A stretch of DNA of 64,000 nt from the NCBI RefSeq assembly GCF_001677475.2, contig NZ_CP015229.1; one strand, written 5' to 3'. The stretch comes from Escherichia coli. GTDB taxonomy: Bacteria; Pseudomonadota; Gammaproteobacteria; Enterobacterales; Enterobacteriaceae. Positions within the stretch are counted from its first letter, which is position 1. The number at the start of each line of letters is the position of its first letter. Below are positions 24,001 to 42,000 of the stretch, in pieces. A program made the position numbers.

Positions 24001-27000
24001 GATACGTCCTACCGCCGGGAACGCATTTTTGCGACCGGCCCAGAAACGTACGCGCTCTGCTTCGTCCTGTGCCAGACGGACGTCAGTCGCGCCCGCTTTC
24101 AGCAAGATGTCGTTAACCCGCTCGCAGTCTTCCTGTACGTCAGACTCCACGCCGTCCAGCTCGCACAACAAAATCGCTTCGGCGTCGACGGGATAACCGG
24201 CATGAATAAAATCTTCCGCCGCGCGGATCGACAGGTTATCCATCATCTCCAGCCCGCCGGGGATAATGCCATTGGCGATGATGTCACCGACGGCGAGTCC
24301 GGCTTTTTCTACCGAGTCAAAGCTGGCTAACAGAACCCGCGCCACGGGCGGCTTCGGCAACAGCTTCACCGTTACTTCGGTGGTCACGCCGAGCATACCT
24401 TCCGATCCGGTGAACAGCGCCAGCAGGTCAAAACCAGGCGAATCCAGCGCGTCCGATCCCAGCGTCAGCGCCTCGCCGTCCAGCGTTTGCACTTCAATTT
24501 TCAGCAGGTTATGTACGGTCAGACCATATTTCAGGCAGTGGACGCCACCGGCATTTTCCGCCACATTGCCGCCAATTGAACAGGCGATTTGTGAGGAAGG
24601 ATCCGGCGCGTAATAGAGATTATGCGGCGCAACGGCCTGGGAGATCGCCAGGTTACGCACGCCCGGCTGCACGCGCGCGCGGCGACCAACGGGGTTAATG
24701 TCGAGGATTTCTTTAAAGCGCGCCATCACCAACAACACACCTTTTTCCAGCGGCAGCGCGCCACCAGAAAGCCCGGTGCCTGCACCACGGGTCACCACCG
24801 GTACACGCAGGCGGTGGCAGACAGCCAGAATCGCTGTCACCTGTTCCATTTGCTTAGGCAGAACAACCAGTAATGGACGCGTGCGATACGCGCTCAACCC
24901 GTCACACTCGTAAGGAATGATCTCCTCATCGGTATGCAGGATCTCCAGTCCAGGGGCATGCTCACGCAGTGCCATCAGTACCGATGTGCGGTCGACATCG
25001 GGTAAAGCGCCATCAAGACGCTCTTCGTACAAGATGCTCATGAGTAGGCTTCGCTTTGTTGTTTTGTGTGGCAGCTGATTTTTGCGCGCTGCTTCTGTGA
25101 ACAGTTATTAAGCGGGCTTTTTGTTTTCGTCTATCTCTTTAGCTACCGGTCAGACCATTTTTTTTTCCAGCTCTGTGACCTTGCATTGGTTAACTTAATG
25201 TTAAATTGATGTAACATAATCACTTACGTGATGTGCGTGTTTTGCGAATTAAGAACAGAAAAATTGGTCCTACCTGTGCACGAGGTCCGGGAATGAAAGA
25301 TGAGCGTCGCCCTATTTGCGAAGTGGTTGCAGAGAGTATCGAACGGTTAATTATCGACGGCGTACTGAAGGTCGGTCAGCCGCTTCCCTCGGAACGTCGA
25401 CTGTGTGAAAAGCTCGGCTTCTCACGCTCCGCACTGCGTGAAGGGCTGACCGTGCTGCGCGGGCGCGGGATTATTGAAACGGCGCAGGGTCGCGATTCTC
25501 GTGTCGCACGGCTTAATCGGGTGCAGGACACCAGCCCGCTAATTCATCTGTTCAGCACGCAGCCGCGAACGCTGTACGATCTGCTCGACGTTCGCGCATT
25601 GCTGGAGGGTGAATCGGCAAGGCTTGCGGCAACGCTGGGAACCCAGGCTGATTTTGTTGTGATAACCCGCTGTTATGAAAAAATGCTCGCCGCCAGTGAG
25701 AACAACAAAGAGATTTCGCTGATCGAACATGCGCAGTTGGATCACGCTTTCCATCTCGCCATTTGTCAGGCTTCTCACAATCAGGTGTTGGTGTTTACGC
25801 TGCAATCATTGACCGATCTGATGTTTAATTCAGTGTTTGCCAGCGTAAATAATCTCTACCATCGACCACAGCAAAAAAAGCAGATCGATCGCCAGCATGC
25901 GCGGATCTACAACGCGGTGTTGCAGCGGCTGCCGCACGTCGCCCAGCGCGCAGCACGCGATCATGTGCGGACCGTGAAAAAGAATCTCCACGATATCGAG
26001 CTGGAAGGCCACCATTTGATTCGCTCGGCGGTGCCGCTGGAGATGAACAAGGTGGGAATGTGAGCCGAGTTTTCACCCTCACCCTAACCCTTTCCCCGAG
26101 GGGCGAGGGATCGCCCCTGCGCTTAACAGGATCTGGTATTAAATTTGCTTTTCATACAATCGGTAACGCTTGTACGGCTCTGCCCCAATGCGTTCCAGCA
26201 TGTTATTCATGCCTGTATTGGTTTCGAGGATCCATGACATCTCCAGCGCATCGATCTTCCGGCGGGCAAACGGATCGCGTAAGGCTTCAATCAATAACAG
26301 CGCAATCACCGGGCCGATGCGGCTGAACTGATACTCGTCCCGCACGCCCATCAGCGGCACTCGCGCAGTTCGCACACCGCTGACTTTCAAACGCCACAGC
26401 AATTTTGCCCAGCCGAAGGGAAAGAGCGATCCGTTCAGATCGGCAATCGCCTCGTTGATGTTTGGCAAGCCGACAATAAACGCGCAGGGTGCAGAATCAA
26501 TCTCAGCGATGTAGATCATATCGTCCGGCACCAGGTATTTAAGCTGATCGCCCATGGTCGCGAATTCATGTTCGGTAAACGGCACAAATCCCCAGTTGTG
26601 CTGCCAGCCAGAGTTGAAAATCTCACGCAGGATCTGCATCTCTTCGGCAAACCGCTGACGATTGATGCAGCGAATGGTCACCTTTTTGCGCACCTGATCC
26701 ATCAGTTTTTTTAGCGCCGGAGAGAAAGTGAGATCGGTTCGCTGCATCCACCACGCCAGTAAATCAATGCCTTTGTGATAACCCAGTTGTTCAATATGCG
26801 CGGCATACCACGGTTTGCCGTGTGGCATCATCGCACAGGGTGGTGTGTCAAAACCTTCAATCAGTAATCCGCTTTCCTGATTGATATTCAGGCTGAAAGG
26901 CCCGCTGATCTTACTTGCACCTTGTGACTTCAACCACGCTTCCGCTGCGCCAAACAACGCGGCAAAAACCTGCGGCTCATCAATGGCGTCAATCATGCCG

Positions 27001-39000: not shown

Positions 39001-42000
39001 TGGTGGTGCACAACTGGTTGATATCGACGCCAATCAGCCACTGGAAAAGGTGCTGGTTGATGCAGAAAAAGCGATTACGGATTTTATGATCGCGCGTGGT
39101 TATCACTAGTCAAAAATGGAAATGCCCGATCGCCAGGACCGGGCATTTTCAGGAAGGTTAAATCAACTGCAATGCTATCCAGTACAACCCACCAGAAAGA
39201 AAAATCGCCGCCGGTAAAGTAAACACCCACGCCATCAGGATGCTGGTTACCGTTTTACGCTGTAACCCACCGCCGTCCACCACCATCGTCCCTGCTACCG
39301 CAGACGAGAGGACGTGTGTTGTGGAGACGGGCATCCCAATATAACTGGCAAGGCCGATAGACACTGCCGCCGTCATTTGTGCCGCCATGCCTTGCGCATA
39401 CGTCATGCCGCGCTTACCAATCTTCTCACCGATGGTCATCGCTACACGACGCCAGCCAATCATGGTGCCAATGCCGAGCGCCAGAGCTACTGCCATGATG
39501 ATCCACACCGGAGCGTACTCAATGGTGCTTAACATATCGCTGCGCAGTTTTTTCAGCAGGTTCTGGTCTTCTTTACTGACGCCTGGCAGTTTCGCCAGCT
39601 TCGCGGAGGTATCAGAGATGCACAGCATAATGCGGCGCAGCTGGCTGCGCTGACTCACGCTTAACGGCTCGTAACTTTCCATATTGCCTGGCAGCATCGT
39701 TTTAACGCGCGCAATCGCATCAAAGGTATTTGCCGGATGACAGTGAAACTCCGTCACTTGCGCGCCATCAGTCGATGCCGCAGGCAATGGAGGTTCCATC
39801 GTAATCAACTTCTGCGGCAGTTCAGGATGCTGTTGCAGGTAGTGTTCGAAGTTGGTGACGGCATCGCGGGTACGGGTAATTTCATAGCCGGACGCGTTCA
39901 TATTGACGACGAAGCCAGCAGGGGCAATCCCCACCAGTACCAGCATCACCAGGCCGATCCCTTTCTGCCCGTCGTTAGCGCCGTGCGAAAACGCCACGCC
40001 CGCAGCGGAAACAATCAGCGCAATACGCGTCCAGAATGGCGGCTTACGTTTGCCTTTTTTCTTTTTGCGATCTTCCGGAATGCGGTGAATACGGTCACGC
40101 TTTTTCGTCCCGCTCCAGAAACGGCGCAGCAGGAAAATCAGACCACCCGCAATGACCAGGCCGACGATAGGGGAAACAATCAGCGAGGAGAAAATTTTGG
40201 TCACTTCACGCAGGTTTAACGCATCCATCACCGATGAGCCGGTTAACAGCGCGTTGGTTAAACCGATGCCGATAATTGCACCAATCAAGGTGTGCGAACT
40301 GGAGGCCGGTAAACCAAAGAACCACGTTCCCAGGTTCCAGATAATCGCCGCCAGCAGCATGGAAAAGACCATCGCCAGACCGTGGGTTGACCCCATATTC
40401 AGCAACAAATCGGTTGGCAACATATGGACAATGGCATAGGCAACGCTAAGTCCGCCCAATAACACGCCAAAAAAATTAAAAAATGCCGCCATCACCACAG
40501 CAAGTTGTGGTTGCATGGCACGAGTATAAATAACGGTTGCCACCGCATTCGCCGTGTCATGAAAACCATTGATTGCTTCGTAGAACAACACAAATGCCAG
40601 AGCAAGTAATAACAAAAGCCCTGTGTATATATCAAGGCCAACAAATAAATTTAGCATATATTAGATTACGCCATTTTGAATTTACGAACGGACGCATTAT
40701 CAGTGACTTTAACGGCGTGGGCAAAGTGAAATATCATTTTTTAACGATAAAAAGAGTGTTATTTCTTGTGTATCAGACAATAAGCATTCATTCAAAACCT
40801 TTAGAATTAATCAAAACATAGCTATTCCACTGGTTAATACATTCACATATGAAATAAATAAATATTGGAACATATAAATATTGAATATTTTGATTAATCC
40901 CCGCACTGATTATTCTTCATAATCAGTGCGGGGTTGCTACAACATGTATTACTCTTTCACCACAATTAACGGTTCAATATCACTCTCTTTTTTAATGACC
41001 AGTGATTCATCACCGCGCAAACACGTCCCACCGTAGTTGCCGCCAACGGTGAAGGTACATACCTGAATGTATTTACCGTCCACTTTCGGCAAACACCACA
41101 GTTGCTGATAGATGTTTTTCTGCTCGGCAAATTTACCGCTGGTTTTGTCCAGCACCTCTTCATGATGGCTGACGAGGTCGATGTTACTGCCACAGCGACC
41201 GGCGATCGGTTTCACTGCGTAACCTGTTTTTACCAGTTCATCATTAACAGTGAAATCGGTATCCAGCAGGTAGCGATGGTGCGGGAACAGCGACCAGAGG
41301 ATCGGCAGAATCGCTTTGTTGCCGGGGATCACTGTCCACAGAGGTTCAAAGACCAGCACTTCCGGGCGCAGCAATACGTCGATAAGACGCACTTCATTTT
41401 GCGGATGACCGGTACGGATCGGCACCGCAGCAAACTCACGGTCGCTAACTTCACGAATCTGATCAAACGCGGTTTCCCACGCCCAGGTTTTCCACACGCA
41501 GTTAACCAGTCGCCCTTCCCCATCAATCAGTTGCCCGGCAGCATCCCAGCCCAGTTCATCCAGCCCGCGCAAGATACGCGTTTCAAAGCCCGCCTGGTGC
41601 AGCGCCTGCTCCATAAACTGCGCGTGATAGTTTTCCTCGATATCTTTGTCCTGCATGATATGGACAAACGGACGTGCACGACTGTGTTTCCAGGCACCAG
41701 CCAGTTCGTTAATCAGCCCTTCCGCCGGATTGAAGCCGTTGCCTTTATAGCCCTGCTCCGCCCAACGTTCGAGGATCAAGCCAGCTTCGGTATGACAGGA
41801 GGCGGAGTCGGCGTTGTATTCGTAGACCTTCAGGCCACGCTCATCCATGCAGAAATCCATACGACCGGTGATCATATGGTGACGGCGACGCTGCCAGGAG
41901 AGACGCAAACGTGGCCAGAGGATTTTCGGAATGTCGAACAGCGCCAGCAGGTTGTCATCTTTTAGCACCTTGTCGGTTGCGTGAAGATACATCAGGTGCA

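Follow-up and report, generated by a model that had tools for sequence, protein, structure and literature searches.

In the window, a stretch of 64,000 nucleotides from contig NZ_CP015229.1 of Escherichia coli (RefSeq assembly GCF_001677475.2), the interval 26139-39109 was occupied by thirteen intact, tightly spaced open reading frames (ORFs), and according to the ORF list of the window it was almost fully coding. The genes were arranged as two convergent operons and two divergent single genes (yghO and yghT), flanked by glcD and glcC at one end and by pitB and gss at the other, which is an ordinary E. coli chromosomal context. An earlier reading made without database searches (the sequence-only reading) had described the architecture of this region and had not named its function; the locus was recognised here as a bacterial sphingolipid locus, with the following features.

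26139-27281, minus strand: yghO, 380 amino acids (aa), putative bacterial ceramide synthase (bCerS or "aca", an N-acyltransferase), divergent from the aasR operon
27242-35628: interval of 8387 bp missing from E. coli K-12 MG1655 and replaced there by a 1195-bp IS5
27282-27652: yghO/aasR divergent promoter region, 31% G+C content (GC), spacer of 344-371 bp
27653-29377, plus strand: aasR, acyl carrier protein (ACP) synthetase of the fatty acyl-AMP ligase type, which loads AcpR
29374-30288, plus strand: cerR ("epi"), putative NAD-dependent reductase of the 3-oxo group, short-chain dehydrogenase/reductase (SDR) type
30320-30568, plus strand: acpR, specialised acyl carrier protein, 82 aa
30568-31740, plus strand: spt, serine palmitoyltransferase, an alpha-oxoamine synthase dependent on pyridoxal phosphate (PLP)
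31743-31777: hairpin between the converging operons, GC-rich, 16-bp stem with 9 G-C pairs
31775-32854, minus strand: lptG2, 359 aa, paralog of the lipopolysaccharide (LPS) exporter permease LptG
32851-33921, minus strand: lptF2, 356 aa, paralog of LptF
33952-34515, minus strand: ytfJ2, predicted secreted YtfJ-family protein, thioredoxin-like fold, no cysteines
34524-35348, minus strand: orf274 ("Ybl138"), 274 aa, predicted cytoplasmic, all-helical CHAD-like protein
35348-36697, minus strand: yghQ, full-length 449 aa, putative MOP/Wzx-type flippase
36742-37500, minus strand: yghR, P-loop kinase-like, thymidylate-kinase superfamily
37530-38243, minus strand: yghS, second kinase-like paralog
38244-38416: yghS/yghT divergent promoter region, 173-bp spacer, 30% GC, containing a palindrome
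38417-39109, plus strand: yghT, third kinase-like paralog, always divergent from yghS
39120-39148: hairpin where yghT and pitB converge

The seven genes of the minus-strand operon (yghS-yghR-yghQ-orf274-ytfJ2-lptF2-lptG2) converged with the aasR-cerR-acpR-spt operon on the hairpin at 31743-31777. Gaps within the operons were between -4 and 44 bp, and those of the aasR operon were -4, 31 and -1 bp; the end of acpR (30568) overlapped the start of spt by 1 nt, so that a dedicated ACP lay directly upstream of spt in the same operon. The aasR ORF opened at a TTG (27626), and the ATG at 27653 was taken as the likely start. The 34-bp gap separating the stop codons of spt and lptG2 was 71% GC and was filled by the hairpin, which corresponds to the terminator claimed earlier at this place; it was terminator-like and, judged by its position, could act in both directions. 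The length of each ORF equalled that of its orthologs in the 20-30 other loci compared, and the ORF map and these lengths bore out the description of an intact thirteen-gene, two-operon convergent locus with yghT divergent. The claimed lack of insertion sequences (IS) and transposases also held, the largest gap being 344 bp and a BLAST search of the whole window with the K-12 IS5 giving no match. No mobility gene, integrase, tRNA or IS was found at the locus, and the GC content, reported as typical, was 50.0% for the locus vs 52.1% for the whole window, with third-position GC (GC3) similar to that of the neighbouring genes.

All five genes of the proteobacterial (Rhodobacteria-type) ceramide set, namely Spt, AcpR, AasR, CerR and bCerS, were present. 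Spt reached 599.7 bits with the NCBIfam equivalog NF047599 for the proteobacterial clade of serine palmitoyltransferases (cut-off 500) and carried a GTFSKS motif with the PLP lysine K244. AasR reached 871 bits with NF006624 of the fatty acyl-AMP ligase (FAAL) family (cut-off 600), AcpR matched ACP families and carried the DLGLESI motif with the phosphopantetheine site Ser39, and CerR matched SDR/epimerase families weakly. For YghO, no Pfam or NCBIfam model matched and a PDB sequence search gave nothing meaningful; with a Caulobacteraceae bCerS ortholog it was 41% identical (358 bits by hidden Markov model). The same genes of E. coli BL21(DE3) appear in Padilla-Gomez et al. (2022; PMC9386255) as ECD_02850 (yghO, "aca"), ECD_02851 (aasR), ECD_02852 (epi), ECD_02853 (acpR) and ECD_02854 (spt). 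As reported there, AcpR of E. coli B bears 4'-phosphopantetheine and is acylated by AasR (ECD_02851), and the E. coli serine palmitoyltransferase (SPT) forms 3-oxo-sphinganine with a preference for acyl-AcpR; yghO (ECD_02850) is given as the ortholog of Caulobacter CC_1154 and cerR (ECD_02852) as that of CC_1164, and the five dihydroceramide genes are said to be clustered in Caulobacter and E. coli only (PMC9386255).

The N-terminus of CerR opened straight at the GATGFIG Rossmann motif (MNQTVAVTGATGFIG), and no signal peptide preceded it. A periplasmic location has been reported for Caulobacter CerR (PMC11087976). In E. coli, the reduction step may have another topology, or the export of CerR may need no N-terminal signal.

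LptG2 (TIGR04408, 303 bits) and LptF2 (TIGR04407, 316 bits) matched the LptG and LptF models over their full length and exceeded the NCBIfam equivalog cut-offs, and were 27% and 29% identical to K-12 LptG and LptF, respectively. They formed a pair distinct from the housekeeping LptF/LptG and were co-localised with spt across genera. LptF2 and LptG2 must be non-essential, because K-12 lives without both. The LptB2FG complex that extracts LPS shares its family models with LptF2/LptG2; here no lptB, lptC or lptA was linked, and the presumed cargo is a sphingolipid. For Caulobacter, a preprint (bioRxiv 10.64898/2026.04.12.717747) shows that sphingolipid transport depends on LptF2/G2, which are needed when sphingolipids are made, associate in a complex and bind the single LptB; its figure 2B draws the sphingolipid operons of E. 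coli UTI89. YghQ matched the MOP flippase family weakly and had six strongly hydrophobic segments resembling transmembrane helices in a 19-residue hydropathy scan; a homolog with 31% identity was located directly upstream of aasR in the Caulobacteraceae locus, which is the position of the putative flippase CC_1166. The RefSeq name given by the Prokaryotic Genome Annotation Pipeline (PGAP), "LPS export ABC transporter permease LptF/LptG", was found to be misleading for LptF2 and LptG2, given their 27-29% identity.

The grouping of the thirteen genes was examined in other genera by an Spt-based scan of genome contigs, with one genome per species. All thirteen were found in one locus in Citrobacter, Pseudocitrobacter, Hafnia, Pluralibacter, Serratia, Sodalis, Mangrovibacter, Pantoea sp. 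A4 and Rosenbergiella. Three blocks varied in order and orientation: yghO with the divergent aasR-cerR-acpR-spt, yghT with the divergent yghS-yghR, and yghQ-orf274-ytfJ2 with lptF2-lptG2. The Pseudomonas loci carried lptG2-lptF2, yghO and aasR-cerR-acpR-spt together with two YghRST-like kinases, and in Oecophyllibacter (Acetobacteraceae) homologs of orf274 (E 1e-54) and YghQ (E 4e-100) were neighbours of a YghRST-type kinase fused in tandem. Gene neighbourhood suggested that YghR/S/T, orf274 and YtfJ2 do belong to the module and that the thirteen genes form one unit. In Serratia sp. M24T3, a second contig held an extra acpR-spt pair (Spt 79% identical to that of the window) besides the full locus, and the other module genes were not nearby. 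The last 35 residues of Spt were also found at 100% identity on a 273-bp low-coverage contig of Alkalicoccobacillus porphyridii (Bacillota), most likely as E. coli contamination of the assembly.

The locus was then compared with that of K-12 MG1655 (NC_000913.3), in which the order was glcC, yghO, IS5LO/insH9, yghQ (355 aa), yghR, yghS, yghT and pitB. The alignment consisted of two collinear blocks, one ending at 27241 and the other starting from 35629, with the IS5 between them. K-12 therefore does not carry the uninterrupted set: 8387 bp are gone, in agreement with the sequence-only reading, namely an IS5 between yghO and a shorter yghQ with the genes in between missing, and an interval of about 8 kb present here together with a yghQ of 449 aa. 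The count of eight affected genes was correct for whole genes; in addition, the 5' end of yghO (its first 13 codons) and the 3' end of yghQ (its last ~94 codons) were lost. The left breakpoint (27241/27242) lay just within yghO, and the right one (35628/35629) left K-12 YghQ with its N-terminal 355 aa only. The IS5 in K-12 had TTAA to its left and CTAA to its right, where the window reads CTGA. IS5 prefers YTAR targets, and both flanks fit. As the two flanks differ, there is no target-site duplication, and a plain insertion of IS5 was rejected on this ground; the K-12 structure would instead have arisen by an IS5-mediated adjacent deletion or by recombination between two IS5 copies.

The annotated K-12 YghO (b2981) was altered by the same event. 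Its gene occupied 5044-6216 of the MG1655 stretch compared (L003), and its first 23 residues, MMNPVLWLQMTNMISYQGLVRTF, were derived from IS5 and replaced the native MECDLLMIKIEKVI, the altered part corresponding to 27242-27281 of the window. On this alignment, both the N-terminus of K-12 YghO and its label "putative DNA-binding transcriptional regulator" result artificially from the deletion. The closely related E. coli B had all thirteen genes in the same order as the window, and its YghR, YghS and YghT proteins were identical to those of K-12.

Within the species, 5426 complete RefSeq genomes were searched, and presence was defined as at least 80% query coverage. The full 13-kb query was present in 4051 genomes and the 8.4-kb core, the part missing from K-12, in 4063 (74.9%), so that the core is not missing from most lineages. 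The carriers included E. coli B, ST131 EC958, O111:H8, O103, O145:H28, ATCC 25922, the type strain DSM 30083 and O55:H7, and the core of E. coli B was ~97.6% identical to the window in DNA. The exact K-12 yghO/IS5 junction was detected in 353 of the 5426 genomes, which among the matches listed were K-12 laboratory derivatives. Other lineages lost the locus independently through IS1, IS3 and larger deletions. In strain 55989, an IS1-associated deletion from glcC into acpR removed part of glcC, yghO, aasR, cerR and part of acpR; other deletions extended between gspL, a type II secretion gene, and either yghQ (EC06) or yghT (LZHX12), and took the glc operon and sslE with them. Insertions of IS3, IS1 and ISKpn26 were also seen in the locus of some genomes.

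The region from the type II secretion (gsp-beta) genes to pitB was a deletion hot spot. Over the locus, the closest complete RefSeq E. coli genome was at most 98.2% identical to the window, and the closest strains had been isolated from a wood-wren and from water samples, among them river water; divergence within the species reached ~4% (window vs type strain).

Three other Escherichia lineages carried the whole set at the same site between glcC and pitB: Escherichia sp. E1V33, E. whittamii and a lineage of divergent "E. coli", the last being the sole "E. coli" match of the Spt scan, at a synonymous divergence (dS) of ~0.3 from the window. In Escherichia sp. MOD1-EC7003 the contig ended inside the locus, and what it showed was the glcC side with the genes as far as orf274. 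Representatives of E. albertii, E. fergusonii and Salmonella were not returned by this one-genome-per-species scan, which cannot prove absence and is weak evidence, since the scan returned no ordinary E. coli genome either. Towards the other Escherichia lineages, dS was 0.1-0.73 for the genes of the locus and 0.23-0.34 for glcD, glcC and pitB. The ratio of nonsynonymous to synonymous divergence (dN/dS) was 0.03-0.17 in all thirteen genes (0.05-0.07 in yghO), and over divergences up to saturation such values indicate sustained purifying selection. Owing to its prevalence, the shared glcC/pitB site, the ordinary GC content and the dN/dS values, the locus is supported as ancestral in E. coli, with K-12 derived, and appears to be old in Escherichia, selectively kept and repeatedly lost. 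The suggestion of the sequence-only reading that it was ancestral rather than recently acquired was likewise sustained by its frequency, its site in the relatives and its flank-like dS.

Within the locus, lptG2, ytfJ2 and orf274 (31775-35348) shared 86-90% aa identity between Escherichia lineages, vs 93-99% for the rest of the locus and the flanks, and dS reached 0.73 in this segment vs ~0.3 elsewhere. This suggests that the central segment was exchanged or is evolving faster.

Five of the thirteen proteins gave no match in the Caulobacteraceae locus and were analysed by profile, motif or structure. YghR, YghS and YghT were paralogs (32-40% identical) with invariant GxDGSGKST, DRYP and ARKPDH motifs. 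A sequence search of YghR against PDB gave nothing meaningful, and the best PDB profile matches of the three were thymidylate kinases (E 2.5e-6). With TIGR00041, the dTMP (deoxythymidine monophosphate) kinase model, they scored 30.9 (YghR), 24.7 and 25.6 bits, far below the cut-off of 83.25. In common with the Tmk family they have the P-loop GxDGSGKST, and their DRYP coincides in position with the Tmk DRY motif; they differ from it in occurring as three paralogs within a lipid locus. On account of this occurrence and of the scores (25-31 bits vs 83), "dTMP kinase", the RefSeq name of YghS and YghT, is very probably wrong.

For orf274, no Pfam, NCBIfam or PDB sequence match was obtained, and no match to CHAD (PF05235) even at E <= 10. 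An AlphaFold model, built with 23 orthologs, had a predicted local distance difference test (pLDDT) score of 92.4 and indicated an all-helical fold of the CHAD type with conserved basic and histidine residues. Foldseek returned "CHAD domain-containing" proteins with 26-42% identity in Sphingomonas, Zymomonas, Acetobacter, Gluconobacter, Komagataeibacter and Pseudomonas, and several genera with such proteins are listed as SPT-carrying sphingolipid bacteria in PMC9386255. The orf274 family was small, with 327 clusters among 1.84 billion representatives. The remaining genera with Foldseek matches we take to be sphingolipid bacteria as well. CHAD domains bind inorganic polyphosphate and often stand beside polyphosphate kinases or phosphatases (PMC6537752). 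The orf274 family is separate from them by sequence, its fusions are with kinase-like or nucleotidyltransferase domains and not with triphosphate tunnel enzymes, and polyphosphate binding is putative here. Orf274 was rejected as a homolog of CpgC, since its comparison with the ORF at the putative CpgC position of the Caulobacteraceae locus gave an hhalign probability of 0.05. In other lineages, one or two copies of the orf274-type domain were seen fused to protein-kinase-like (HGDLKPxN) or nucleotidyltransferase N-terminal domains (P0235, P0237, P0266 and P0251), and at least two related proteins (P0178 and P0262) began with a signal-peptide-like sequence.

YtfJ2 contained no cysteine, hence no CXXC active site of the TlpA/DsbE/ResA type, and was rejected as a thiol-disulfide oxidoreductase. 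It carried an invariant basic AGRxSAKKKN motif, which by our reading of the sequence may stand at the usual CXXC position. In the literature, nothing relevant was found that links yghQ/R/S/T, Ybl138 or CHAD to sphingolipids. The CHAD-like orf274, the cysteine-free periplasmic YtfJ2 with its thioredoxin fold and the three thymidylate-kinase-like paralogs are possibly new.

From these results, we consider it likely that the locus is a chromosomal pathway of E. coli for the synthesis of a sphingolipid and its transport to the outer membrane, that the arrangement in the window is ancestral, and that K-12 lost the core through an IS5-associated deletion of 8.4 kb. In such a pathway, AasR would load a fatty acid onto the dedicated carrier AcpR and Spt would condense the acyl-AcpR with serine to 3-oxo-sphinganine, both as shown for the E. 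coli B orthologs. YghO would then add the N-acyl chain and CerR reduce the 3-oxo group, giving dihydroceramide, as suggested by orthology with genetically proven Caulobacter genes. By homology and conserved neighbourhood, YghQ would flip the lipid across the inner membrane and LptF2/LptG2 would extract it, probably with LptB, the ATPase of the housekeeping system, as none is encoded in the locus itself. The weakest step is the head group: three phosphotransfer-type enzymes, a fold like that of polyphosphate binders and a basic protein of the periplasm hint at an undescribed head group, anionic, probably phosphorylated and rich in phosphate, that would differ from the ceramide phosphoglycerate of Caulobacter; YghR/S/T, orf274 and YtfJ2 would build or handle it. 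A more specific version for the enterobacterial form of the locus is offered tentatively and remains doubtful, in which YghR/S/T would phosphorylate ceramide, possibly phosphate on phosphate as nucleotide-monophosphate kinases do, orf274 would bind an oligophosphate in the cytoplasm and YtfJ2 would receive the lipid in the periplasm beside LptF2/G2. If this were true, most natural E. coli could, under certain conditions, place a phosphorylated sphingolipid in their outer membrane, which work on K-12 could never reveal.

Several observations weigh against the sphingolipid pathway as proposed. No report of a sphingolipid from any E. coli was found in the papers searched. In PMC9386255, BL21(DE3), whose locus is intact, gave with empty vectors only background lipids and no spot like 3-oxo-sphinganine, and co-overexpression of AcpR, AasR and Spt was needed to obtain the 3-oxo-sphinganine-like compound; because of the empty-vector result, the native locus may be silent in laboratory culture. 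The locus has been lost repeatedly in nature and is therefore dispensable in at least some niches. YghR/S/T were rejected as homologs of CpgB, the Caulobacter ceramide kinase, which belongs to the LCB5/DAG-kinase family, and the roles proposed for YghQ, YghR/S/T, orf274 and YtfJ2 rest on fold, motifs and neighbourhood. A scan of the whole window for Pho boxes with up to 3 mismatches returned no match, so that there is no direct evidence of PhoB control. The empty-vector result would suit a cryptic remnant, silent and decaying in E. coli and hence frequently lost, as would the recurrent deletions and insertions by IS5, IS1, IS3 and ISKpn26 and the ~30% GC of both promoter regions, a type that is often silenced by H-NS. 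We nevertheless regard decay as unlikely, since the thirteen genes were full length here and in most genomes, the dN/dS values indicated sustained purifying selection and the cloned E. coli enzymes are active.

Two further explanations were judged very improbable. One is that the interval is a recently acquired island and K-12 the original empty site. The module is indeed patchy among the genera of Enterobacterales, E. albertii, E. fergusonii and Salmonella representatives were not returned, and the near-identical gene order with pitB in the distant Hafnia suggests some horizontal movement at a deeper level; but the site in K-12 is not empty, having an IS5 between a truncated yghO and a truncated yghQ, 75% of E. 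coli carry the locus, other Escherichia lineages have it at the same glcC/pitB site, its dS resembles that of flanking core genes, its GC and GC3 are ordinary, and integrase, tRNA and IS are all absent. The other, to which we give just as little credence, is that the convergent operon serves LPS or a polysaccharide and adjoins the ceramide genes by chance. It would explain the PGAP names ("LptF", "LptG", "lipopolysaccharide biosynthesis protein" and "dTMP kinase"), the passing of the equivalog cut-offs by LptF2/LptG2, and the kinase/orf274/YghQ block of Oecophyllibacter, which has glycosyltransferases around it and lacks an spt within 10 kb. Against it, LptF2 shares only 29% and LptG2 only 27% identity with the respective essential protein of the housekeeping pair, both blocks accompany spt through several rearrangements in about ten genera, Caulobacter LptF2/G2 are experimentally tied to sphingolipids, and YghR/S/T fall far under the dTMP-kinase cut-off.

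The core of this finding is already known, as the locus and its function are in the specialist literature, and the locus is no new kind of system. The BL21(DE3) genes ECD_02850-ECD_02854 and the UTI89 operons are the same locus in other strains. PMC9386255 deals with the five genes for ceramide and the preprint also with lptF2/G2; in the text consulted, YghR/S/T, orf274, YtfJ2, the K-12 breakpoints and the prevalence are not discussed. In Caulobacter crescentus, CC_1152-CC_1168 (CCNA_01212-01226) cluster Spt, AcpR, AasR, CerR, bCerS, LptF2/G2 and the MOP-type flippase CC_1166, also without an LptB of their own. Homologs of Caulobacter CpgA (PgsA-like), CpgB (LCB5 kinase), CpgC and LptC2 were not detected among the thirteen E. 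coli proteins, none of which matched the families of the CpgABC ceramide phosphoglycerate pathway; conversely, E. coli YghR/S/T, CHAD-like orf274 and YtfJ2 gave no match in the Caulobacteraceae locus. What is added here is the K-12 breakpoints and mode of deletion, the prevalence and independent losses, a thirteen-gene unit under selection, and fold leads for three components.

Textbook accounts of the membrane lipid composition of E. coli are based on K-12, a deletion mutant with respect to this pathway, and three quarters of the sequenced E. coli, including B/BL21, uropathogenic and enterohaemorrhagic strains and the type strain, keep the genes for ceramide synthesis and an Lpt-like exporter under purifying selection. 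Whether they make the lipid, when, and with what head group bears on outer-membrane biology, on resistance to polymyxin and detergents as in Caulobacter, and on host signalling by sphingolipids of gut bacteria.

The yghS/yghT divergent promoter region contained the palindrome GACAAT-N5-ATTGTG at 38317-38333. It was kept in Citrobacter amalonaticus (perfect), Pseudocitrobacter and Hafnia, and the spacer around it had diverged; ~3 chance matches are expected in the window, and the single site is not significant alone. A second copy was searched for in the yghO/aasR spacer and was not found. Because the locus encodes no regulator, the palindrome may be a candidate operator for a regulator encoded elsewhere.

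The phosphate transporter gene pitB (39158-40657), or a pitA ortholog, adjoined the module in Escherichia, Citrobacter, Pseudocitrobacter and Hafnia, and was located at the opposite end, beside yghO, in Pluralibacter. Judging from these positions, pitB may travel with the module.

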